Shown one piece after another: positions 1 through 52,659 of a DNA stretch of 54,700 nucleotides. Position numbers and translations under genes: made by a program. The notes under the pieces were generated by a model. The model was not told the origin of the DNA. It was given only the letters and a program-made list of their open reading frames with translations, and ran no database searches. Position 1 is the first letter of the stretch, and every line of letters begins with the position of its first letter. The DNA comes from Chiloscyllium plagiosum (taxonomy: Eukaryota): positions 12,045,575 through 12,100,274 of the forward strand of contig NC_057754.1 of assembly GCF_004010195.1 (NCBI RefSeq). Direction: 5' to 3'.

Positions 1-166
1 TTTGGGACCACTGCTGTTTCTCATTTTTATAAATGATATAGATGCAGGCATAGGTGGATGGATTAGTAAATTTGCAGACGGTGGAGTAGTGGACGGTGTG
101 GAAAAATGTTACAGGTTGCAGGGTGACTTGCATAAACAGCAGAATTGGACTGAGAGGGGGCAAATA
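1..166 (+). mobile_element. CR1 LINE reverse transcriptase fragment
   Basis: Translates LGPLLFLIFINDIDAGIGGWISKFAD (CR1 RT core); cut off at about 166 by the duplicated block. Confidence 0.85.
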
Positions 167-5122: not shown

Positions 5123-5317
5123 ATCAGGATTAGCGTGGTGCTGGAAATGCACGGCACATCGCACAGCATCTGAGGAGAAGGAAAATTGATGTTTCGGGCA
5201 AAAGGTTTTCATCAGGATTTTCCTGCTCTTCAGATGCTGCCTGACCTGCTGCATTTTTCCGGCACCACTCTAATCTTGACTCTAGTCTCTAGCACCTGCA
5301 GTACCCACATTCGCCTA
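5123..5317. mobile_element. Penelope-like (family A) inverted pLTR miniature with degenerate hammerhead
   Basis: Inverted arms (gtggtgctggaaatgca... / ...tgcatttttccggcaccac); minus strand CTGATGA...GAAAC at about 5191-5215; flanked by attggcttcaag (5111-5122) and attgacttcaag (5318-5329). Confidence 0.75.
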
Positions 5318-22745: not shown

Positions 22746-23639
22746 TGACTCCTTCCAGTCCTCTATGTAAAATTAAAATCACCTTTCCATCTTGGAAGCT
22801 CCACATTGTATTTGATCAGTCTTATCAAATTTTCTTTGCAAGTAAACAACTTCATTGCACGAATCATTCGAGAGAACCAACTCTGAGCTCCTTCCAATGT
22901 AATAATATCCTTTGTTCGGTGAGGAGACTAAATCTACACACACTACTCCAGATTCTATCTCACTAAGATCCTGTACAGCAGCAACAACACTTTGTCAGCC
23001 TGCTGTATGTTTCCCACACAGGTTAGAGCAGTCGCAGCTCTCTGGGGAAATGCACAGCATTGTTTTAAGGTCATTGTCCTTCTCTACTCCGGTATAACAG
23101 GAAACCTGGTAAAAATGTTACAATGACGTTTGAGAAGAACAGATAAGGCGTGGAGCGATTAACGTAACATTGAGATCAGCCTTGGCAAATATCTGGTCTG
23201 AATCTCTCATTAATCTCCACAAAGCGCACGTCGCTCAGATTCCACAAAATATGCTAATGTGAAGCTTAGAAAAAGCAGGGAGAAGCAAGTATCGATGTGA
23301 GTTATATATCAAAGTAAACATTGGAATTAAAATATTTGGCATGGTATAAGCAGAAAATTAGATTACAAATTTGTTGATACTTCAATAACAACGAACAAAT
23401 TCAGGTTTCGTCTAAACTGTGTTAACCGAAGTGCATGTGACTGCTGGGAGAAATTGATTTCATGAGCGTGGATGAGATGTTTTGCTTTAACAGTATATTG
23501 AGCAACGAGTGAGAAGTCAGGCTACTATTTTGGTGTTGAGTAATCAGAAGTCTTCATTGAAAATTTTGCTTTAAAGGAACTTTGGAGTCGTGGTCACAGT
23601 ATGTTGAACTGTACACGATATCTGAATGCAAAACGGTTT

Positions 23640-24745
23640 TGTTGGTATTTGAAATTACGGGCTCCATTTTCATTCTTCCTTTTTGTAACCTTAGTTCCTT
23701 TAGCAATGAATAATCTATCTACCTCTGAATTAAATGTACTCAATGACGTAAAGTCAACAGCTTTTTGTGGCAATGAATTCCACAGATTCTCCACTTTCAT
23801 TCGAAAGAATTATTTTTGTTTCCGTTTCAAAGTGTCTTCCATTTACTCTCAGGTTGTGCACTCGGGTCCTCGTTTCTAATTCCAATGGAAACATCTTCCC
23901 AAAGTTCATTTTTTACAGGTCATTCAGTATTCTCAAGTTTCAATCAGATTCCCCCTTATTTTTCTAAGCTCCAGCGAGTATAAACACCGAGTCCTCAAAC
24001 GTTCCTCCTCTGTTAAGTATTTTATTCCTTTTCTAATTCGCAGGAACCTTCTCTAGACCCTCTCCAGGGCCAATACAGTCTTTCTGAGGTAGGCTGCCCA
24101 AAATATCCAAAATATCATCTGAACAGAGCCTTATAAAGCCTCAAAAGCCTCGTTTTTGTGTTACAGTCCTCGAGAGATGAAGACCACATTATATTTGCCT
24201 TCCTAATTACCAATTCAATCCGCACCTTTTTCTTAAGAACATCCTGGATTTGGAATCGCAAGTCCCTTTCCCCTTCAGATTTTAGAATTTTCTTCCCATT
24301 TAGCAATTGTGAATGCCTCTATTGTTCCTATGAAAGTGCATGAACTCACACGTTGCCACATTTTATTACTTCTTCCACTTCTCTGGTCACTCTCCCAATG
24401 TATCTAAATCATTCTGCTGACTGTCCGCCTCCTCTATACTGCATGTGCCTCCACATATCTTCATTTCAGCTGCAAACATAATCAAAATATCCTAAATTAC
24501 TTCATCCATATCATTTATGAATAGAATGAAAAGTTATGGTCCCAAAGTGACCTGTTTCCATATTGAGAAGGACCACTTTATACCCATTCTCTACCTTTTG
24601 CCAGACAGCCAATCATTGATCCATAATAGTACCTTGCCTCTAACACCATAAGCACTCATCTTACTGAGGAGCACCCTGTGCAATATCTTATCAAAGGCCT
24701 CCTGGAAGTCCTTCTGACATCCGTTGGGTTTCTTTCGTCTAACCT
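23640..24745 (-). mobile_element. Old degraded CR1 LINE 3' part (inside duplication copy 2)
   Basis: MKVENLWNSLPQKAV and SEGERDLRFQI..RLYKALFR. Confidence 0.75.
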
Positions 24746-24749
24746 GATC

Positions 24750-25165
24750 AAAGAAGTCTCATTTGCATGAGAGCAATGTAATTTATTGAAATGGGGACCA
24801 ACGAGATGGTTATACCTACATACAGAGTGGAAGTGTTCCTCAAAGCAGTCACTGTCTGACTTGCCAATGTACAGAAGACTGCATTATGAGCAGCAATGAC
24901 AGTTGACAGGATTAAAAGAGTAGAAGTGAAATACCACTTCACCTGGAAACTGTACTTCGGACCCTGTGCAGTAAGGAGGCAGGAGGTGAATGGGCACGTT
25001 TTTGGAGCTTCTGCAATTTCATTGGACCGTGCCAAGGGAAGTGGGTAAGTGTTCGGAGCGATTGAGGGCTTCACAGAGGGACGGGAGGGGAAGATGTGTT
25101 TAACAGTGTGTCCTGCTGAAAGTGACTGAGGATTATCCTGTGAATTTGGTTTTGCGGACAGTGGA
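24750..25165 (-). mobile_element. Penelope-like GIY-YIG endonuclease fragment (Neptune-like)
   Basis: Minus strand KTCPF...QGPKYSFQVKWYFT, then after a frameshift CCSQCSLLYIGK, matching the GIY-YIG region at 36820-36930. Confidence 0.7.
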
Positions 25166-30658: not shown

Positions 30659-30726
30659 CAACGTCGATTCTCCTGCTCTTTGGATGCTGCCTGACCTGCT
30701 GCGCTTTTCCACCAACACATTTTCAC
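30659..30726 (+). mobile_element. Short PLE family A pLTR fragment inserted in Gypsy RT
   Basis: aacgtcgattctcctgctctttggatgctgcctgacctgctgcgcttttcc is shared with 33735-33800; flanked by ctcaat (30653-30658, 30727-30732). Confidence 0.75.
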
Positions 30727-33600
30727 CTCAATTATAACTTTATTGAGCATCACATCCACTTCCTTCTGGACCTGTGCGACTCTGAAAGCATTAAGATTAA
30801 AGGGGTGCTGTTTTATTGGAACAGCTTTCCCTACTTCTACCTCATGCACAATTGTATGAGTCCTCCACATCTTTTTTTCCTGCATATGTGTTCATATTGC
30901 TGCAACAAACCTTTCAACTGCGCTCTGTGCTCCTGAAACAGGTAGTTCACTAACCTATTCCATTACTCGTGGACTTCCTTATTGTTTAACAGATTTTGAG
31001 TTATATCAAACTCCACGACATCTGGTATTGTTTTTTTCACTTTGCAAGCTAGTAACTCACACCTGTTACTGAAGTTCCCGCTCTCTATTACAATAAGGTT
31101 TCATGACATACCAGAAACTGTTCTTTTTTGTCCGAAGTCCTCACCTGTAGTGTACCTAAATCAACTTTTTTCTCATGATGATAGCAACCACTTAACTTGG
31201 TTTTCAGGTTTTCTCCTACCATTGCGAGCAATATTAATACATCAATCCCACGGGAAATCGTCGGAAATTCTGAGTTTTTATTTACTACGTGCTTCTTTAT
31301 ATCCTGAGACCTCTTCAGATGCGGTTCAGCTAATTCAGCTACATGATTTAATATCTCCTTCTCGTCAGATACATAATGAAAGCGTGAGATCTTCGACTTC
31401 AATCCTGTCAATTTCACGCTAATTCATTTCAAAGTCCCTCTCATTTCATGTCCGATCACTAACTCAAAGGGAGCAAATTGAGTAGGTCATTTGGAGCAAA
31501 TCTAATGGCAAACAATGCAAATGGAACTAATTATCATAATAATTCGGGTAATCTTGCCAGTATGCTCATAACACGGTCTTCATGGTCCGATGCCAGCTTT
31601 CTAAAGCTCCCTGAGATTCAGGATGAAATGTACTTGTTTTAAAGTGCTACATGCCATAGCTATCCATGGCGTCCTTAAACAGCCTAGCAGTAAAATTAGA
31701 CCCTTGGTCTGATTGAATCACTATGGGTAGCCCGTACGACGTGAAGGAAGATACTAACTCGTCCTCCGCCCTTATTACCTTAATATTCCGTAATGAACTT
31801 GCCTCTGGACATCTGGTAGAAACATCCATTTTGGTTAGCAAATACTGGTTCCTCCTTTTAGATTTAGGAAGGGGATCTTCACAATCAATCATAACCTGCG
31901 TGAAAGGTTTTTCAAATGCGGGAATTGGCAACAAAGGTGCTCGTTATATTACTGCCTGTGCTTTCCTACCATTTGATATGCATGACACGTACAGAAAAAG
32001 GTAACCGCATCCTTGTATATTCCAATCCGGTAGAAAACGTCTTGTACCTTTGCCTAGGTGATACTTACACCTAAGTGATCTCCTCCTCGTAATTCATGTG
32101 CTACCCGTAACACTTCCTATCTGTATGCTACAGACAACACAATCTGGTGCACTTCTGCCCATTTCTTCTCTGCACTAACCTTCCATAGACTCATTTTCCG
32201 AGTGTGTATACGTATATGGCAGTCTCTTCTTTCTCTTGCAGGGTTCTTTAGCCTTTCAGGACTAATCACTTCTACATGACATTCTGCCTGTTGGTTTTTG
32301 CAGCACGATTGCATGAAACAGGGCATCTGCTATCTGATCATTAGCTCCTTCATCTTTCTGTTTATATTTTGCTTCTTACTGTGACTGATGATAGTGGGAT
32401 CTTGCTACTGCGCAGTCTGGAAAGTTTCCAGAGTATTTATCTTTTAACTCCTCAGTTCCCTGCTCTTCCTTTGGCTTAACCACAACAATGAGTGTCAATC
32501 CCACCTCAGATACTGATAAATCGTTCCCAGGTTTAATAAACCCTGTATTTCTGGAAATGACACTCATTCAATCACTCCCACTGTTTCTTCTCCAATCTTA
32601 ATTTGGCATTCCAACCTGATCTTACATAGGACAACGCTAAACTTCTGCCCATCTATTGCACAATTAACACTCTCTCGAGTAACAGGTCAGTAAGAGTGCA
32701 AATACTTTCACATCGTACTATTAGAAACTGATTAGATTCTGTATCTCTCAAAATTAATACTTCTTTCTCTTCTCTACCTGTTCTTTCTGAGTAAACTTTA
32801 CTCGCAGAGGGGAATACATTACAGAGATCAAGCACCAACTCCACACCCAGCCCTGCCTAATCTGTTCATTCTCCTGCAGCGCCTGAACTTTTCTTAGGGT
32901 TTCCTTTTTTACTTTCATAAATGCCTTAGCCTCTTTTTCAACGTCTTTTCCCACAGTGCCTGTCTTTAACGACTGGCACTGTGTGTATACGTGTCCCATT
33001 TTGCTACAGTCTATTTGGCTTCCTTTTGTGCTCTACCCTTTATTTTGCACGTTAGAATCTCCCCTTCGCCCAATTTCAATTCCTCAAAAAATGACATACT
33101 TACTAGAAGCTCAACTTTTCCTGATGCACCAATGCCTATTCATCTGCCATATTTGCTGCTTTTCGAAATGTTTGAAGTTTCTGTTCACCCATATGAAATC
33201 CAATCATCTCTGGAAGTGAGATTTTAAGCTGCTCCAGCAGAATAATCTCTCTTGGAGTTTTGTAGGTCTTATCTGTTTTTAAGGCCTGCATTCATTTATC
33301 AAAGCTATCATTTTAATTCTTTTGAGCTCAAGATAAGTTTGAAATGGTTCCTTCTTTCTGTTTCTGAACCGTTGATTTCAACTTCTGGTACTAATTCATA
33401 AGCACTCGAAATAGCCTGTTTGACATCTACATGATTTCTTTAGCCCTCATCTGACAGCGCTGCAAATATGTCACGAGCTCTGCCTATCAGCTTAGATTGA
33501 ACTAGCATTGCCCACAAGTTCTCTAAGCCCTCCATCTGCCTAGCCAGTTTTTCAAATGAAATGAAGAAGCATCCGACATCTATTTTTCATCATAATGTAG

Positions 33601-33803
33601 GAGTAAGTGAGGATTGCAGATGCTGGAGATCAGAGCTTAAAAATGTGTTGCTGGAAAAGCGCAGCAGTTCAGGCAGCATCAAAGGAGAAGGAGAATCGAC
33701 GTTTCGGGCAAAAGCCTTGAATGCTTATGCCCGAAACGTCGATTCTCCTTCTCCTTTGATGCTGCCTGACCTGCTGCGCTTTTCCAGCAGCACATTTTTA
33801 AGC
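33601..33803. mobile_element. PLE family A fold-back miniature (83-bp arms) inserted in Gypsy gag
   Basis: Arms 33633-33715 and 33723-33805 with 3 mismatches and a 7-nt loop; TSD tcatcataatgtag (33587-33600) / tcatcaaaatgtag (33804-33817). Confidence 0.88.
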
Positions 33804-35340: not shown

Positions 35341-37490
35341 ATTAGAGTGGTGCTGGAAAAGCACAACTGTTCAGGCAGCATCTGAGAAGCAAGAAAACTT
35401 GACTTTTGGAGCTTAAGCCCTTCATCAGGGCGGAAGACAGGGAGCCTCCAGGGTTGAGAGATAAATGGGAGGGGTCTGTGGCTAGGGACAAGGTAGCAAA
35501 GAATACAATGGATGGATGGGGGATGAAAGTGATAGGTCAGAGAGAAGGGTGGGGGAAGGTGGCAAAGAGTACAACGGGTGGATGGGGGTAGAGATGAAGG
35601 TGATAGGTCAGAGAGAAGGGTGGAGGTGATAGATGGGAAGGAGGATTCGAATCCTCCTATTTTCTCCCGACGAAAGGGGTAGACATGGGCACCCGTATGG
35701 GCCTCAGATATACCTGTCTCTTTGTCGGCTATGTAGAACAGTCAACCTTATGTTGTTACTCCGACAACACTCCCCACCTCTTCCTCCACTACATTGATGA
35801 CTGCATCAGCGCCACCTTGTGCGCCCGCGAGGAGGTTGAGCAGTTCATCAACCTCAACAACACATTCCACCCCGACCTTAAATTCGCTTGGATCACCTCG
35901 GATACCTCCCATCCCCTCCTGGACCTCTCCATCTCCATCAATGACGACCGACTTGACACTGACATTTTTACAAACCCACTGACTCCAATAGCTACCCGGA
36001 ATTACACCTCTTCCCACCCTACCTCCTGCAAAAATGCTATCCCGTAATCCCAATTCCTCCGGCTCCACCGTATCTGCTCCCAGGAGGACCAGTTCCACCA
36101 CAGAACACACCAGATGGTCTCCTTCTTTAAAGTCCGCAATTTCTCTTCCCACGTGGTTGAAAATGCCCTCCAACGCATCTCATCCACATCCCAAACATCC
36201 ACCTGCAAACGACACTCCTCCAAATATAACAAGGACAGTATCCCCCTAGTCCTCACCTTCCACCTTACCAACCTTCGCATAATCGTGGGCTGCACGGTGG
36301 TACAGTGGTTAGCACTGCTGCCTCACAGCGCCAGAGATCCGGGTTCAATTCCCGCCTCAGGCGACTGACTGTGTGGAGTTTGCACGTTCTCCCCGTGTCT
36401 GCGTGGTTTTCTCCGGGTGCTCCGGTTTCCTCTCACAATCCAAAGATGTGCAGGTAAGGTGAATTGGCCATGCTAAATTGCCTCTAGTGTTAGGTAAAGG
36501 GTAAATGTATGGGTATGTGTGGGTTGCGCTTCAGCGGAGCGGTGTGGAATTGTTGGGCCGAAGGGCCTGTTTCCACACTGTAAGTAATCTAATCTAATCC
36601 GCATCATTTGCTGACATTTCCACGACCTCCAAACGGACCCCCCCCCCCACCAGGGATATATTTCCCTCCCCACCCTTTTCCGCATTCTGCAAAGACCGTT
36701 CCCGCCGTGACTACTGGGTCAGGTCCACGCCCCCAACAACCTACCCTCTCCTACTGGCACCTTCCACTGCCACCGCAGGAATTGCAAATCCTGCGCCCAC
36801 ATCTCCCTCTTCTTGTCCATTAAAGGTCCCAAAGCAACCTTCCACATCCATCAAAGTTTCACCTGCACATCCACAAATGTCATTTATTGTATCTGTTGCT
36901 CTCGATGTGGTGTCCTTTATATTGGGGGACTGGACGCCCTCTCGCAGAGCGTTTTAGGGAACATCTATGGGACACACGCACCAATCAACCCCACCGCTCT
37001 GTGGCCCAACATTTCAACTCTCCCTCCCACTCTGTTGAGTACATGCAGGAACTGGGCCTCTTCCACCGCCACTCCCTCATCACCCAACACCTGGATGAAG
37101 AACGCCTCATCTACAACCTCGGAATACTTCAACTCCAGGGCATCATGTGGACTTCACCAGTTTCCTCATTTCCCCTACCCCACCAGTTCCAACCTTGCTG
37201 CTCAGCACCAGGCTCATGAACTGTCCTACCTGTCAATCTTCCTTCAGCTCCGCCCTCCTCTCTGCCCATATCACTTTCTTCCCGACCCCTATCCACCCAA
37301 TGTATTCTTTGCTACCTTCTCCCCAGCCCAATCCCCTTCCCATTTATCTCTCAAACCTGGAGGCTCCCTGCCTTCCGTCCTGAAGAAGGGCGATTTTCCT
37401 GCTCCTCGGATGCTGCCTGACTGGCTGTGCTTTTCCAGCACCACTATAATCTAGATTATAATTCCCTACATCTGCAGTCCTCGCGTTTGC
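35341..37490 (+). mobile_element. Penelope-like element (Neptune-like, family A): inverted 5' pLTR, RT C-half, Zn linker, GIY-YIG, 3' pLTR; decayed
   Basis: MGTRMG..YIDDC..HPDLKF..LDLSI (RT); CHRRNCKSC; FTCTSTNVIYCICCSRCGVLYIG..LAERFREH; 35341-35430 is the inverse of the 37375-37452 pLTR. Confidence 0.9.
36285..36599 (+). mobile_element. HE1-type V-SINE inserted in the PLE
   Basis: A box ggtggtacagtggttagc, B box gggttcaattcc, V-domain, tail gggccgaagggcctgtttccacactgtaag(taatc)3; taatc also lies immediately 5'. Confidence 0.92.
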
Positions 37491-39947: not shown

Positions 39948-40855
39948 TTAACGTACTAACGATCTACGTCCTGCTTTATAAAGATTGTGGATTGTCTCCA
40001 TGTGTGAGTCGTTACTTGGGAGCCATGGCAGTGGCGGACCTACTGGTCATTATCATCGACGTGATTATGAGACACATTCCATTTGTTTATAAGGAACAGT
40101 TTTATTTCCTGAAGTCCATCCCCGTGTGTAATATCCACGCTGTGCTGCTTTATACAGCCACTGACTGTTCTGTCTGGTTCACCGTCACTTTCACCTTCGA
40201 TCGATTTGTGGCCATTTGTTGCCCGAAGCTGAAAAGCAAATATTGCAGTGTGAAAACGGCGACTGTGATTCTGGTAACAGTGATTGTGTTGAGCTTTTTA
40301 AAGAACATTTTCTGGTATTTTATGCTTTCAGCTCAGTATCGGTTTGGGAATTCCCCCTGGTTTTGTAAGGCAACAGACGATGTTTATAACTCTCGTGTCT
40401 GGGTCACAATCGAGTTCCTCCACCACTTTCTAACCCCGGTTCTTCCATGTCTCTTGATTCTGCTGCTCAATGCTTTCACCATCAGACACATTTTAGTAAC
40501 CAGTAGAGCCCGCAGGAGACTCAGGGCTCACACCAATGTGGACGCTCAGTGTGACAGAGAAATGCAAAATCGAAAAAAATCTATTATTTTACTGTTTGTG
40601 ATCTCGGCCAATTTTATCCTATTATGGACAACATTAATGGTGTTTGTTGTGTGGAAACGGATGTGGTATTTGGGGTATAGGTCTGTATATCTGTCTTGGT
40701 TTGTGCTTCGATTGGGCTTCACGCTGCAGCTCCTCAGCTGCTGCACAAACACAGTGATTTATGCCGTGACACAGACTAAGTTCAGACAGCAGCTGACGGA
40801 CGTGCTGAAATATCCCTTTATCCGAATTCATCAATCAATCAAAATCACTCATTAA
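39948..40855 (+). CDS. GPR139/GPR142-like class A orphan GPCR, main coding exon (end of TM1 to C-terminus)
   Basis: Open frame VNVLTI..CGLS..YLGAMAVADLLV..DCSVWFTVTFTFDRFVAICC..FILLW..LLSCCTNTVIYAVTQTKFR..stop; polypyrimidine acceptor ttttccttcctcacag at 39932-39947 (phase 1). Confidence 0.9.
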
Positions 40856-41369: not shown

Positions 41370-43570
41370 CCTTCCATGGTAAAAGGTTTGCAAGCCGTTA
41401 CTAGGAGAACAGAGTTGGCATGGTTCACATTTCGTTGCGAGGGGATCAGAGTGGGGATGAGTTCATACATCCATCCTAGGGGAACAGAGCTGGAATAAGT
41501 TCACAGGTAGTTGTGAGGTCAATAGAGTTGAGATAACTCACAGGCCATTTCTGGGTGAACAAAGTGGGGAAGCATCGGTACAATGTTGCTGGTGAAATGG
41601 AATTGGAGCAGAGTAACAGGCTGTTGCTGGGAAAACAGAGTGGAAATTTGTTCACAGGCCCTTGCTGGGAGAACATTCAGTTCCAAGGAGAATGGAGTGG
41701 AATGGGCTTCCAGGTTGTTACGGGAGAACATACTGGAGATTGAATCACAGGCTACTTCTTGGAGAAACAATTGGGAATGGGTTCACAAGCAGTTGCTTAG
41801 GGAGCAGAGTGGGGAGGGTTCACTCTCCGTTTCGAGGAGAACAGCTTGGGTTTTGATGTATAGTATGTTGCGAGGGAAACGCCGTGAGGATGGGTTAAAT
41901 GGGCCATTCAGAGCTGAGCGGAGTGGGAATGTGTTCAGAGGCAGTTGCTCAGGGAACAGAATGGGAATGGGTTGATGGGCTGTTTCTTAGGAAACAACTA
42001 GGGGATGGGTTCACAGGCTGTTGCTAGGAGAATAGAATTAAGATAGTTTACTAGACCGTTTATGGGAGAACAGATTTGGGAAAGTTTCACAGACCGTTGC
42101 AACAGAAGAGTGTGGTAATGAATTTGCAGGCTTTTGCGAGCGAAATAGGGTAAGACTGGGGTCACAGGCCATTGCTCGGGCAATAGTGTGGGAATGCATT
42201 CACAGGAAGTTGCTAGGAGAACACATTCGGGTTGGGTTTAGAGGCCAGAGTTAAGAGATCAGAGTTGGAATGGATTCACATGCCATTGCTCAGGGAACAG
42301 TGTGAGGATTGGTTCACAGACAGTTGCTAGAGGAACAAAGTAGGAATGGGTTCACAGGCCGATTCCAAGGAAACAGAGTCGGATTGAGGTCACAGCAAGG
42401 AGAGTGGAATGGGGATGAGTTCACAGGGTGTTCCTATGAGAATGGGAATCAGAGTGAGAATGGATTCTCAGACTGTTGGTAGAGGAACAGAGCCAGGCTG
42501 GAGTCACAGGCAGTTGCTCAGGGACAGAGTTGTTATGGGGTCACAGACCATTGCTATGGTAACAAAATTGAGATAGATCAACGGGTCGTTGCTGGGATAG
42601 AATGTTGGGGATCGGTTCACATCCCATTGTTAGGAGAACAGATTTGGAATTTATTCCTATGCTGTTGCTGGGAAAATATTCTGGGAATGTGTTCACAGTG
42701 CATTGCGAGGAGAACAGATTGGTGATAGGATGACCAGTCGTTGCTCGTAGAATAGTGTGGGGATGCATTCACGTACAGTTGATAAGGGAACAGAATGGGA
42801 ATTGGTTTACAGGCCGTTGCTAGGGAAACAGTGTTGGGATGGGGTCACAGGTTGTTGCTAAGGGAACAGTGTTCACTTTATTTTCCACTGGCCGTTTCTT
42901 GGAGAATATTTTGTGGATGGTTTCACAGCCTGTTGCAAGGAGAACTTAGTGGGAATGGATTTGCAGGCAATTCCTAGGGGAACAGAGTGGGAATGGGGCC
43001 CAGGTCATCCCTAGGCGAACAGAGTGGGGATGGATTCATAGGGCATTGCTAGGGAAGCAGATGGGGATAATGTTACCGGTCATTTCTTGGGGAAAGAGTG
43101 GGGACGGGTTCACTTGTCATTTCGAGGAGAATAGTTGGGAATTGCATTCAGAGGCTTCTGCTCAACAGAGAGGCAATAGAGTCACAGACGTTTCCCTGTC
43201 GGAAAAGAGCCAGGATGGGTTCACAGTCTGTTGCAAGGCGAACAGAGTGGAACTTTTTCAGAGGCTTTTGATGGGAGAACAGACTTGGCATTTGTAAACA
43301 GGCCGTTGGGATCGGTTCATTCTATGTTGTAAGGAGAAAAGAGTAATAATGGTTTCACAGTTTGTTGCTAGGAGAACAGAGAGAGGATGTCTTCACAGGC
43401 CTTTGCGAAGGGAATAGAGAGAGAATGTGGTCACAGGCCGATTCTAGGAAAACACAGTGGGAATGTGTTCAGAGGCCGTTGCTGGGGTAGCAATGTGGTG
43501 ATGGGTTGGTAGGTGATTGCTCGGAGAACAGAGTGTGCATGACTTTGTAGGCCGTTGCGAGGTGAATGAA
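41370..43570. repeat. 38-bp satellite, left block (consensus ggagaacagagtgggaatgggttcacaggccgttgcta)
   Basis: aggccg at 43435 and 43473 (38 apart); roughly 55-60 diverged units. Confidence 0.88.
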
Positions 43571-43838: not shown

Positions 43839-43960
43839 ATTCGGAGATGCCGGTGTTGGACTGGGGTATTACAATCACCTGATGAAGGAGCGTCGCTCCG
43901 AAAGCTAGTGTGCTTCCAATTAAACCGTTGGACTATAACCTGGTGTTGTGTGATTTTTAA
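43839..43960 (+). mobile_element. 122-bp PLE-derived non-coding insert (family B) carrying a hammerhead ribozyme
   Basis: Perfect 11-bp TSD ctataattcta at 43828-43838 and 43961-43971; interrupts the CR1 EN domain. Confidence 0.85.
43876..43910 (+). ncRNA. Minimal type I hammerhead ribozyme (intact core)
   Basis: CAC-CUGAUGA-A-GGAGC(GUC)GCUCC-GAAA-GC-UA-GUG; palindromic AGCU stem III; predicted cleavage after A43907. Confidence 0.8.
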
Positions 43961-46296: not shown

Positions 46297-47537
46297 GGAT
46301 GGATTCAGAGAGCGTTGCCAGATAAACAGAGAAGGGATAGGCGCACAGGACATAGATTGTGGAATACTGTTAGGACTGGTACACAGGTCACCGCTAGAAG
46401 AGCAGACTGGAAATGGATTCATAGGCCGTTAGTATGTGAAAAGTGTGGGGATGGTTTCAAAGGCTGTTACATCGAAAACAAATTTGAGAGAGGTTAACAG
46501 GCTGTTTTATCCAGCACAGAGTGGGGATGGGTTCACTGGCCGTTGCAGGGGAAGAGAGCCTGGTTGGTGTCAAAGGCAGTTGCTAGGAGAACAGAAATCT
46601 GATGAGTTCACAGGCTATTGCTAGTGTACTGAAGGTGAAATAGATCGACAGGCTTTGCTAGGGAAACAGGGTGGGGGTGGGTTCACAGACCATTGCTTGC
46701 ACAACAGAATATGAATTTATTCACAGGCCGTTCCTGGGAGATCATTCTGCGGATGAGTCCAGAGTCTGCTGTAAAGAGAACAGCGCAGGCATGGATTCAC
46801 ACTCTGTTGCAAGTAGAACAGAGTGGGAATGGGTTCACTGGCGATTGTTAGGGCAGTAGAGTCTAGATGTGCCCACAGGCCATCCTTCAGAAAACAGACT
46901 AGCGACAAATCACACTCTTTTCCTGTGGGAACCCCGTGGGAATAGGTTCACAGTTTCTTGATAGTAGAACACAGTGAGAAGTTGCTAACAGGACCTTGAT
47001 GGGAGAATTGACTTTACACAGGGGTTCATAGGCCATTGCTTGGAGAACAGAGTGTTGATAACTTCACTGGCCGTTGCAAGGGAAACAGAGTTCGGATGGG
47101 TCAACAGGCCGTTTTTGGGAGAAGAGAGTGGCAATAAGTTGACAAGCAATTGCTCGGAGAACAGATTGGCGACAGGTTCACAGACAGTTGCGAGGAGAAC
47201 AGTGTGGGGATGGGTTCACAGGCTGGTGCTAGGAGCCAGAGCGTGGATGGGGTCACTGGCAGTTGTTAGAGGTATTCGGTGTGGATTAAGTCACAGCCCA
47301 TTGCCAGGCGAATAGAATGAGACTGGGTTCACAGGTCTTTTCTAGGAGAACAAAGTAGTGATGGGTTCACAGGAGAACAGAGTTAAGATGGGTTGACACT
47401 TTGTTGCAAGGAGAGACGAGTGAGGATGGGTACACAGTATGTTCCCAAGGACAACAGAGTGAGGATGGGTTCAAAGGCCATTTTTAGGGGAACATGGCTA
47501 GGAGGGGTTCACAGGCCGTTGCTGGGGGAACAGAGTT
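46297..47537. repeat. 38-bp satellite, right block
   Basis: Same unit resumes directly after the CR1 tail (e.g. ggagaacagtgtggggatgggttcacagg at about 47194). Confidence 0.88.
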
Positions 47538-47544
47538 GATCATC

Positions 47545-49285
47545 CTGTTCTCCCAGGGTCAGTGCTGTAAGAGACTGCTCAGTTTCAGTCTGCTCTGCCC
47601 TGGATCAGTGAGACAAACACTGTGGGGTCAGTCTGTTTGCAGAGATAGCGAGGTCAGTCAGCTCCCCTGGGACCAGTGATGCACACATTGTACGTTCAGT
47701 CATGTCTTCCTGAGGTGAGTGACACAGACACAGTGGGGTCAGTCTGCTCACCTCGGGGTCAGTGATACAGACACATTGGACTCAATCTGCTCTCCATATT
47801 ATTAGTGATACAGACACAGTGGGGGAGATATATTCTGTCCGGGGTGAGTGATAAAAGACACATTGAGGTCTCTTCGTTCTCACCAGGGTTAATAGTACAA
47901 ACAGCGTAGGGTCACTCTCCTCTTTCCAGGGTTCGGTGAGAAGATATAGTTTGGCTCAGTCTACTCTCCACAGGGTCAGTGATGCATACACAGTGTCCTC
48001 AATCAGGTCTCCACACGGTCAATGATACTCACAGTGGAGAAAGTCTCCTCTCCCCATGGTCAGTGATACAGACATAGGGTTGTCAGTCGTTTCTCCATGG
48101 TGACAGTGATACAGACACAGCTTCGTTAAGTCTGCTTTCTGGGCATCAGTGCTACAAACACAGTAGGTCAGCATACGCGTCCAATTGTCATTGAGACGCA
48201 CACAGAAATGTCAGTCTCCTCTCCCCAGTGTCAGTCATACACAAACAGAGGTTTCAGTCTGCTCTCACTGGAGTCAGTAACACATCGACAGTGGGGTGAG
48301 ACTGCTTTTTTTGTCGTCAGTGATACGTACACAGTGGGGTCAGTCTGCTCTCTCTGGGGACAGTGATACGTAACTTGTGGGGTCAGCCTACTATCCCCAT
48401 GGTCAGCGATATAGATACAATGGAGTCTGTGTGTAAACCACTGGGTAAATCATACAGAGCCACTGTTTTCATCCTGCTTTTCCTGGTTCAGTAATGAACT
48501 TACAATGGATCAGACTGCTTTCACCTGGTCAGTGAACAGTTACACAGGTGTCAGTCAGCACTCTATTGTGTCAGTCATGCAGACATAGGGATGTCGATCT
48601 CTTTTCTCATGGTCACTGACACGAATACAGGGCGGTCAGTCTGTTCTGTCAGAGTTAGTGTTATTGCCACAGTGGTGTCTGTTCTTCCCGTTCTCAGTGT
48701 TGCAGACATAGTGGAGTCAGTTTGCTTTCTCAGGGGCCAATGTTAAACACACATTGGCGTCAGTCTGTTCTCCTTATTGTCAGTGATAGACATGCAGTGC
48801 GGGCAGTATCCTCTCGCCGGAGTCAATAATACAGATGCAGCGGGTGTAGTCTGATGTCCCGGTGTCAGTGACAAAGACACAATGAGGTCATTATGCTCAC
48901 GAGACGGTCAGTAATTCACACAAACTGTTGTCAGGTTTGCTGTCCCCAGGGTCAGTAAAACTGATTCAGTAGATCATTGTGCTACACACAGTACCAGTAA
49001 TACACAAAGCGGTATCGGTCTGCTTTATCCCGTGTCAGTACTGCATAAACAGTGGGGTAAGTCTACTTTCCTCGGGTCAGTGATACCTATACAGTGCGGC
49101 GTGTCGGCTCTCCTCAGTGTCAGTGATGTACACAGTGGAGTCAGTGTCATCTCTCCAGGGTCAGTCATGCACACACTGTGGCGTCAGTTAGCTCTCCCTG
49201 GGGTCAGTGCTACAGCCACAGTTGGGTCCGTCTGCTCTCCCAGGCTCATTGATATAGACATGCTAGTGTCAGTCTGCTCTCCCCG
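47545..49285. repeat. 43-bp satellite (about 40 copies), consensus gggtcagtgatacagacacagtggggtcagtctgctctcccca
   Basis: agtg anchors at 47761, 47804, 47847 and 48062, 48105, 48148 (43 apart). Confidence 0.9.
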
Positions 49286-49427: not shown

Positions 49428-50002
49428 GACCAGCTGTCCACTGAAGTGGCTGGTCCATTGGGTCCAGGTCGATGTGCTTATTGATTGTATCTGTGGATGC
49501 CATGCCTCTAGGAATTCCCTGGTTGTTCTCCGTTTGGCTTGTCCTATAATAGTAGTGTTGTCCCAGTCGACCGCATGTTGCTTGTCATCTGAGTGTTTGG
49601 TTACTAATGCTAGCTGGTCATGTCGTTTCGTGGGCAGTTGGTGCTCATGGACACGGACCATTAGCTGACTTTCTGTTTGTCCCATGTAGTGTTTTGTGCA
49701 GTCCTTGCATGTGATTTTGTACACTGCATTGGTTTTGCTCATGCTGGGTATCGGGTCCTTCATCCTGGTGAGTTGTTGTCTTACAGTGGCTGTTATGAGT
49801 CCTAGGACCCAATATACAAGCCACTGCAGCGGACAGCTGGAACTGACAACCGGAAGCGGCAGGTACAAATCACTATAAATGCCGGAGGAAACAAAACAGA
49901 AGCCCTTCACAGGAGGCTCCCAAGCACTGAGGATGTCACCTAGACAGGGGACGAAACGTCTGCAACACAACTAGCCAGCTCCGCGAACAGAACCACAACA
50001 AC
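49428..50002. mobile_element. Penelope-like element (Poseidon-like, family C): inverted GIY-YIG segment plus forward 3' pLTR
   Basis: Minus strand KDPIP..NAVYKITCKDCTKHYMGQT..RVHEH..DWDNTTII..REFLEAWH; 49430-49468 is the inverse of 49805-49840; forward pLTR with hammerhead. Confidence 0.85.
49924..49963 (+). ncRNA. Minimal type I hammerhead ribozyme (intact core)
   Basis: GCA-CUGAGGA-U-GUCACCU(AGAC)AGGGGAC-GAAA-CG-UC-UGC; palindromic ACGU stem III; predicted GUC cleavage after C49960. Confidence 0.8.
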
Positions 50003-51145
50003 AGGAATAAGAGAATGATCAAAGAAAGAGTAGGGCCGATCAGGGATAGCATAGGGGACTTGTGTATGGAGTCTGAGGAGGTAGGGGAAGCCCTAATTGA
50101 GTTTTTTGTTTCTGTCTTTACTAAAGAAAATGACGTTGCAGTTAATGAAAACGTTGAGAAACTGGTAAGCGTTCTGGAACAGATAGATATTGAGGAAGCT
50201 GATATGTTGAAAATTTTGACAAACATTAATATTGACAAGTTGCCAGGGCCAGAACAGATTTGTCCTCGGCTTCTTTGGGAGGCAAGAAATGTGATTGCTT
50301 CGCTGCTTGCGAAGATCTTTGCATCCTCGCTCTCCACCGGAGTCGTACCTGAGGATTGGATGGAGGCAAATGTAATTCTTCTCTTCAAGAAAGGAAATAG
50401 GGAAATCTCTGGCAATTGCAGACCAGTCAGTCTCACGTCTGTCGTCTGCAAGTTGTTAGAAAGGATTCTGAGGGACAGGGGTTATGACCATCTGGAAGAG
50501 CATGGCTTGATTAAAGGCACGGCTTTGTGAGGGGCAGATCATGCCTCACAAACCTTATTGAGTTCTTTGAGGATGTTACTAGACATGCTGATGAGGGTGG
50601 AGGGGTGGATGTGGTGTATGTGGACTTCGGTAAGGCATTTGATAAGGTTCCCCATGGTAGGCTCGTTCAGAAGGTCAGGAGGAATGGGATACAGGAAAAT
50701 TTAGCTGTCTGGATACAGAATTGGCTGGTCGACAGAAGACTGCGAGTGGTAGTGGAAGGAAAGTATTCTGCCTGGAAGTCAGTGGTGAGTGGTGTTCCAC
50801 AGGGCTCTGTCTTGGCCCTCTACTCTTTGTAATTTTTATTAATGACTTGGATGAGGAGATTGAAGGATTGGTTAGCAAGTTTGCAGACGACACAAAGGTT
50901 GGAGGTGTCGTTGACAGTATAGAGGACTGTTGTAGGCTGCAGCGGGACATTGACAGGATGCAGAGATGGACTGAGAGGTTGCAGATGCAGTTCAACCTGG
51001 ATAAATGCGAAATTATGCATTTTGGAAGATCGAACTTGAAAGTTGAGTACAGGATTAAAGACAGGATTCATGGCAGTGTGGAGGAACAGCGGGATCTTTG
51101 TATGCAGGTACATAGATCCCTTAAAATTGCCACCCAGCTGGACAG
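50003..51145 (+). mobile_element. CR1 LINE ORF2 (tether-RT) fragment
   Basis: VPEDWMEANVILLFKKG, DFGKAFDKVPH, SGVPQGSVL, SKFADDTK. Confidence 0.92.
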
Positions 51146-52485: not shown

Positions 52486-52659
52486 AGATAAGCTAGCTTA
52501 TCTCTCCACGCTTCAGGCTCTCTGCCTTTATTCCTGATTAAGGGCTTTTGACCGAAACGTCGATTTTGCCTGTCCTCGGATGCTGCCTGAATTGCTGTGC
52601 TCTTCCAGCACCACTGATCCAGAATCTGGTTTCCAGCATCTGCAGTCATTGTTTTTACC
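52486..52659 (+). mobile_element. PLE family A pLTR with mutated hammerhead inserted in Rex1-like LINE
   Basis: ttcCTGATTAagggcttttgaccGAAACGTCgatt (G8>U, stem II mismatch), followed by the cggatgctgcctga..ttccagcaccact tail. Confidence 0.8.

Follow-up and report, generated by a model that had tools for sequence, protein, structure and literature searches.

A family C hammerhead motif in a 5'-inverted Poseidon-clade remnant of a shark genome and its probable role in the parent element

Introduction

The locus at 49430-50003 of a 54,700-nucleotide stretch of Chiloscyllium plagiosum DNA (hereafter the window) raises the question of what a hammerhead-type ribozyme motif lodged in a fragment of a PLE does, or once did. 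The role of PLE hammerheads is described as open in the passages covered of Craig 2021. The extra nucleotide after the core and the palindrome in stem III have both been published for the class, whose minimal members are reported to be slow and dimer-dependent (Cervera and De la Pena 2014, PMC4209133, in the sections covered). The present genome, with more than 160,000 motifs plus some 200 copies that hold the 5' end of the ORF, offers enough material for the start, cut and priming sites to be deduced from the ends of insertions. We conclude that 49430-50003 is very probably a truncated, 5'-inverted remnant of the Penelope/Poseidon clade, whose minimal family C hammerhead probably worked for the parent element and is probably inactive in this copy. 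The single locus is an ordinary fossil, and such a lone copy is likely without effect on the host.

The motif and its insertion

The forward-strand letters of 49924-49963 read GCA CTGAGGA T GTCACCT AGAC AGGGGAC GAAA CG TC TGC, with C17 at 49960 (Table 1), and the identity and layout given in the earlier note are confirmed. The two parts of the core expected of a minimal type I PLE hammerhead, CUGANGA and GAAA-NUH, are both present, and the motif further agrees with the PLE consensus in its extra nucleotide after A9, the G10.1-C11.1 pair and the palindromic 15.2-16.2 positions. Stem II consists of six pairs and one A.G mismatch, the latter being family-wide. An Rfam search at the gathering threshold returned no matches. 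A structure-aware scan of the window recovered hammerheads at 43879 (family B) and 49927 (family C), so that the latter is indeed a second intact hammerhead, as first described. Judged by its sequence, 49924-49963 is a genuine hammerhead-type motif of a published class and a new instance of it.

The motif lies inside a 574-bp, 5'-inverted and truncated remnant of the Penelope/Poseidon clade. The minus-strand translation of 49794-49430 bears out the inverted GIY-YIG segment that had been noted next to the motif; at the DNA level, this segment is about 90% identical to other copies. The first 36 bp of the pseudo-LTR segment are an inverted duplicate of 49430-49465, located at the inversion break, and in uninverted family copies the endonuclease segment continues straight into the pseudo-LTR. 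The TATA-like hexamer upstream of the motif reads TACAAA in some family copies. Beyond 50003 lies what we take, from its translation, to be a CR1-like LINE. Family C as a whole displays partial tandems, inverted 5'-truncated copies and a 30-40 bp tail, as expected of Penelope/Poseidon elements; inverted, 5'-truncated copies with such a tail are given as typical of PLEs in the parts of Craig 2021 covered. Non-LTR retrozymes are defined by short tandem units that are non-coding and each carry a hammerhead; such units are absent here, the locus being a single copy with a coding remnant.

Table 1. Features of the window and their coordinates (position 1 is the first nucleotide of the window)
Feature	Position	Strand	Basis
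Other family A pieces	5135-5302, 30660-30729, 33612-33798, 52504-52653		window census
Decayed family A element, Neptune-type Cys linker, broken hammerheads at both ends	35346..37479		sequence
7TM receptor gene, exon 2	39948..40855	+	Pfam 7tm_1 E 1.4e-19; splice sites and phase fit
Intact family B hammerhead	43876..43910	+	structure-aware scan, family B pattern
Inverted 5' segment: decayed GIY-YIG endonuclease/C-terminal ORF part	49430..49794	-	72-75% identical to endonuclease end of full-length copy
Sense 3' segment (pseudo-LTR)	49805..50003	+	comparison with uninverted copies
TATA-like hexamer, ~30 nt before putative transcription start	49874..49879	+	sequence; putative function
Putative transcription start, 52-57 nt before cut	49903..49908	+	5' ends of long copies
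Minimal type I hammerhead, family C	49924..49963	+	sequence, structure-aware scan, genome pattern match, sister-family pairing
Stem I, family C	49924-26/49961-63	+	sequence
Core CUGANGA, family C	49927-33	+	sequence
AUG (A9, extra U, G10.1), start of RT-endonuclease frame in full-length copies	49933..49935	+	L156 frame, relatives' N-termini
Extra U after core, family C	49934	+	sequence
Stem II, family C	49935-41/49946-52	+	sequence
UAG ending the preceding unit's ORF (...TEDVT*), stem II/loop II border	49941..49943	+	frames of long copies
GAAA, family C	49953-56	+	sequence
Palindrome ACGU (stem III), family C	49956-59	+	sequence
Predicted cut, family C	after C49960	+	sequence
Insertion 3' end, 40-43 nt beyond cut; shorter of two family-wide end sites	50000..50003	+	family end comparison

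Abundance in the genome and the window

A general core pattern applied to the whole genome found 166,503 core-intact motifs, or one per 21 kb, as against 324 with the reversed control, which upholds the earlier claim of a very high genomic density. The exact patterns of families A, B and C gave 93,695, 18,140 and 9,151 matches, respectively, with none for any of the three in reverse. Since the reversed controls are near nil, the motif is not a product of chance. The density exceeds the published counts of about 4,000 in the coelacanth and 9,000 in Xenopus (PMC4209133, in the sections covered), which were obtained with another descriptor. We also encountered further hammerhead families, namely C2, D and one with a GAGUC/GACUC stem, along with a family A variant compensated to GAGC/GCUC.

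The window itself is no ribozyme hot spot, with two intact motifs found versus 2.6 expected at the genome average. It does hold the three families first proposed: the census gave eight family A pieces, none with both an intact core and stem II, one B and one C. The figure of seven to eight full or partial motifs put forward earlier is therefore a fair count, but only two are intact. An ORF accompanying the family B motif was looked for and not found. At 5216 and 37391, two of the eight family A pieces resume at or beside the predicted cut, each with 1-2 nt of microhomology. Just past the window, the minus strand carries an intact family A motif (~58,980) and another inverted family C remnant (~59,750-60,740; locus L163, numbered as in the window). 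Two long degenerate tandem arrays (41377-43562 and 46400-49284) flank the region, a gap of Ns occupies ~1440-1940, and 167-1391 and 23572-24797 form a 1.2-kb direct duplication with 95% identity.

The parent element starts and stops its ORF within the ribozyme

All six long loci carry two same-strand motifs 2.1-2.8 kb apart, which correspond to both flanking repeats of a full-length PLE. At locus L156, where they are 2,503 bp apart, the whole unit is ORF: the AUG in the hammerhead opens a 549-aa frame with an RVT_1 (RT) match, and the endonuclease frame terminates in the next motif, at a UAG located eight bases after the corresponding AUG there. Because the ORF begins in one hammerhead and stops in the next, the unit has no untranslated gap. 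In the sister families C2 and D, the AUG is kept in all seven copies shown and the UAG in five of them. An upstream AUG at 49879 was rejected as the start, as it is absent from both sister families and lies upstream of the putative transcription start.

The single ORF encodes an RT followed by a C-terminal GIY-YIG domain, as in Penelope/Poseidon elements; the latter label comes from motif reading, with Pfam giving no match for it. The Zn-finger-like Cys linker, a Neptune/Nematis feature according to the passages covered of Craig 2021, is absent from all four family C frames, which agrees with the Poseidon-type host element proposed at the outset. Among the 120 relatives listed, the closest named protein is from the bamboo shark (89% identity), and the nearest non-shark proteins are those of flatworm PLEs (47-50%). 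Flatworm or unnamed PLE proteins, with 47-50% identity over the whole query, are closer than any non-shark vertebrate match among the 120.

Seventeen of these listed relatives reach the N-terminus, and 15 of the 17 display M-x(4-7)-KR near the start, versus none of 212 internal methionines. In the RT-endonuclease frame, the core letters GAAACGU encode precisely this KR. Thus, the proteins suggest that the start-in-ribozyme layout likely extends to flatworm elements. A comparable layout is known from the lizard Anolis carolinensis, whose Poseidon element PAc has an ORF starting at hammerhead stem II, as in family C, with the cut 26 nt after the start as opposed to 28 nt in family C (Frangieh et al. 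2024, PMC11167929, in the parts covered). In the literature passages covered, we found no description of start and stop codons overlapping a hammerhead, and the overlap is absent from the discussion in the sections covered of Cervera and De la Pena 2014 (PMC4209133).

Ends of the insertions

The 3' ends of 82 family C copies fall mainly at two sites past the predicted cut: 37 lie at +35..45 and 41 at +64..88, with one at +20 and three running on. None of the 82 ends at the cut. Two end sites past the cut and none at it imply a template whose downstream ribozyme had not been cleaved. This matches PAc, for which two internal RT start sites, a 30-40 bp tail and an uncut RNA template are reported in the parts covered of Frangieh et al. 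2024 (PMC11167929).

Among the 5' ends of long copies, a pile-up is seen at -57..-52, with 9 of 39 copies at risk versus 1.1 expected (P=3e-6; ~2.5e-4 after correction for 80 windows, this window having been chosen after seeing the data). The earlier first set had none in seven. The pile-up lies 30 nt after the TATA-like hexamer and, as read from DNA ends, likely marks the transcription start. Drosophila Penelope has been reported as TATA-less in the source passages covered. The solo copy with the motif at 49924-49963 retains a TATA-like box, and it could still give rise to transcripts. Four long family C copies (L228, L236, L269 and L273) start exactly at core C3 (-33).

The cut may in addition have been a working step in vivo that removes the cap and AUG and so turns the messenger into an RT template, with some long insertions beginning at the cut; we treat this as a tentative possibility that leans towards the unlikely. 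In the first set of 30 long copies, four 5' ends lay at 0..+3 (four of the six near the site), a position window that was fixed only after that set and is hence post hoc. In a second set (90 rows among the first 100 of 202 matches, with eight already seen and two further rows left out; 87 with readable flanks), 4 of the 56 copies reaching that far begin at 0..+3 versus 1.27 expected (P=0.04). A third set of five, with one deletion dropped and one insertion-bearing copy placed by eye, had one such end. When the long copies are pooled, 9 of the 21 ends within -10..+14 lie at 0..+3 (P=0.003), but this becomes 5 of 15 (P=0.08) without the post hoc set, and short copies show no cut-site excess (11/60, P=0.42; of 99 such copies, 34 with deletions were excluded). 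The surplus in long copies is thus no more than suggestive. Moreover, the putative transcription start collects more long-copy 5' ends than the cut, and PAc insertion in vitro needs no cleavage and gave no cut-site reads (Frangieh et al. 2024, PMC11167929, in the parts covered).

Returning to the reading of the locus as a remnant whose hammerhead served its parent, we would propose the following cycle. Transcription would start ~28 nt before the AUG in the hammerhead, and the uncut RNA would be translated. Reverse transcription would begin in the downstream repeat, 40 or 79 nt beyond its cut site, which would accordingly have been uncut. Within one tandem RNA, two motifs of family C would associate through ACGU and through stem I paired crosswise; their slow cleavage, probably helped by the element protein, would remove the cap and the first nine codons. 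Most insertions would terminate prematurely or become inverted, and the resulting short 3' fragments, such as the present one, would decay neutrally. Going further, the hammerhead might be a one-way switch: a TATA-driven RNA would have its sole start codon in the ribozyme, the cut would behead the messenger so that it is copied rather than translated, the layout would reach from flatworms to sharks, and the long insertions starting at the cut would be its genomic record. We regard this extension as doubtful; were it true, those insertions would testify to PLE ribozyme activity in vivo.

Dimers and folding

On our reading of the double-hammerhead model, stem I forms between the 5' arm of one motif and the 3' arm of its partner. 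Computed on this topology for 30 copies per family, cross-pairing of stem I reaches 3 bp in 94% of C-C combinations and in none of 900 A-C or 900 C-A combinations. Heterodimers of A/C, A/B and B/C were rejected, with only 0-3% of stem I pairings reaching 3 bp. Since the arms fail to cross-pair, the common ACGU is insufficient for A/C dimers, and the earlier proposal of heterodimers formed through it is not sustained. Folding predictions gave -12.7 kcal/mol for the double hammerhead versus -20.9 kcal/mol for the cofold minimum, favoring inactive alternatives, and placed a competing hairpin over GAAAC in family C. The predicted preference for inactive forms is in line with PAc, which cleaves only with protein; its cleavage is protein-assisted in the account of Frangieh et al. 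2024 (PMC11167929, in the parts covered).

Relation to known systems

The kind of motif is already published, and by their letters the Cercyon-type motifs of Clonorchis sinensis are nearly identical to family C, with a common stem I (GCA/UGC) and stem II start (GUC) (PMC4209133, in the sections covered). The alignment and table of Cervera and De la Pena 2014 (PMC4209133), as far as covered, are without cartilaginous fish, and our literature search on sharks or cartilaginous fish together with hammerhead ribozymes found no relevant study, although the supplements of related studies may bear on novelty. Non-LTR retrozymes, which carry PLE-derived type I hammerheads, are reported from one chondrichthyan genome; they are short head-to-tail tandems, in contrast to the dispersed, inverted coding-element remnant at 49430-50003 (Li et al. 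2026, bioRxiv 10.64898/2026.07.22.740005, in the passages covered). What is new here is the putative transcription start, the protein imprint of the start, the test for neutral decay and the case against heterodimers.

Selection, decay and the host

The eight alignable motifs of families C, C2 and D have 90% of cells paired, with two of ten pairs changed on both sides, as against 33-45% paired in slid controls; the eight are related and the shuffle control ignores relatedness, so shuffle counts do not equal probabilities. Pair-keeping changes among these eight related sequences support helices I and II of the family C type. The stems of A, B and C are not alignable, and hence there is no covariation among them in the strict sense. 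For inserted copies, we used 56 drawn from 47 of 58 loci that had been located independently of the ribozyme. Of the 56, 18 remain intact, and non-CpG positions of the core differ at 13/560 (2.3%) versus 132/5169 (2.6%) in the flank (P=0.89). Decay at the two CpGs of the motif (33/89) outpaces that at ten flank CpGs (93/437; nominal P=0.0025; individual flank sites span 7-44%). Sister-family covariation together with neutral decay of the copies indicates that selection on the fold acted on active element lineages, not on the host. The covariation-type selection claimed earlier therefore stands between element lineages but not for inserted copies or across families A, B and C.

We found no clear host effect. 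The proposal that many motifs cut host pre-mRNAs, such as that of the nearby GPCR, or that the host selects against sense-strand copies, appears improbable. The number of core-intact motifs and the faster decay of the two CpGs would fit it, as would the under-representation of tandem retrozymes in Xenopus introns reported in the passages covered, and family C sequence does occur in polyA RNA from the same or a related organism, predominantly on the strand that carries the hammerhead. In that RNA run (X21), 290 reads matched family C, of which only four reached a similarity of 99% or more; reads extend over the cut, and the listing shows no accumulation of ends, in a polyA single-cell library ill-suited to the purpose. 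A second run (X22) had no matching reads. Against action on the host, non-CpG core decay equals that of the flank, and the class is slow and dimer-dependent with cross-family dimers failing. The receptor gene fares no better: exon 1 matching its exon 2 lies at L162:8290-8386, ~1.6 kb before the window, and in the window census the predicted 41.6-kb intron contains only broken family A pieces and no intact hammerhead. As both intact motifs lie past the receptor stop codon, by 3.0 and 9.1 kb, the relevance to GPCR pre-mRNA suggested earlier is not supported.

The family C core is also coding sequence, in two frames, so its conservation is not purely ribozyme-driven. That the motif survives mainly as such overlapping coding sequence, with cleavage lost, would accommodate the frames running through it, the A.G mismatch and the hairpin competing over GAAAC, but is most unlikely given that sister families differ in stems I and II in ways that preserve pairing, that families A and B retain the core with other stems, and that the homologous PAc motif cleaves (Frangieh et al. 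2024, PMC11167929, in the parts covered). Finally, small deletions at short repeats recur within the motif (L284-L383), for instance spanning -6 to +4 in five copies and -18 to -7 in four.
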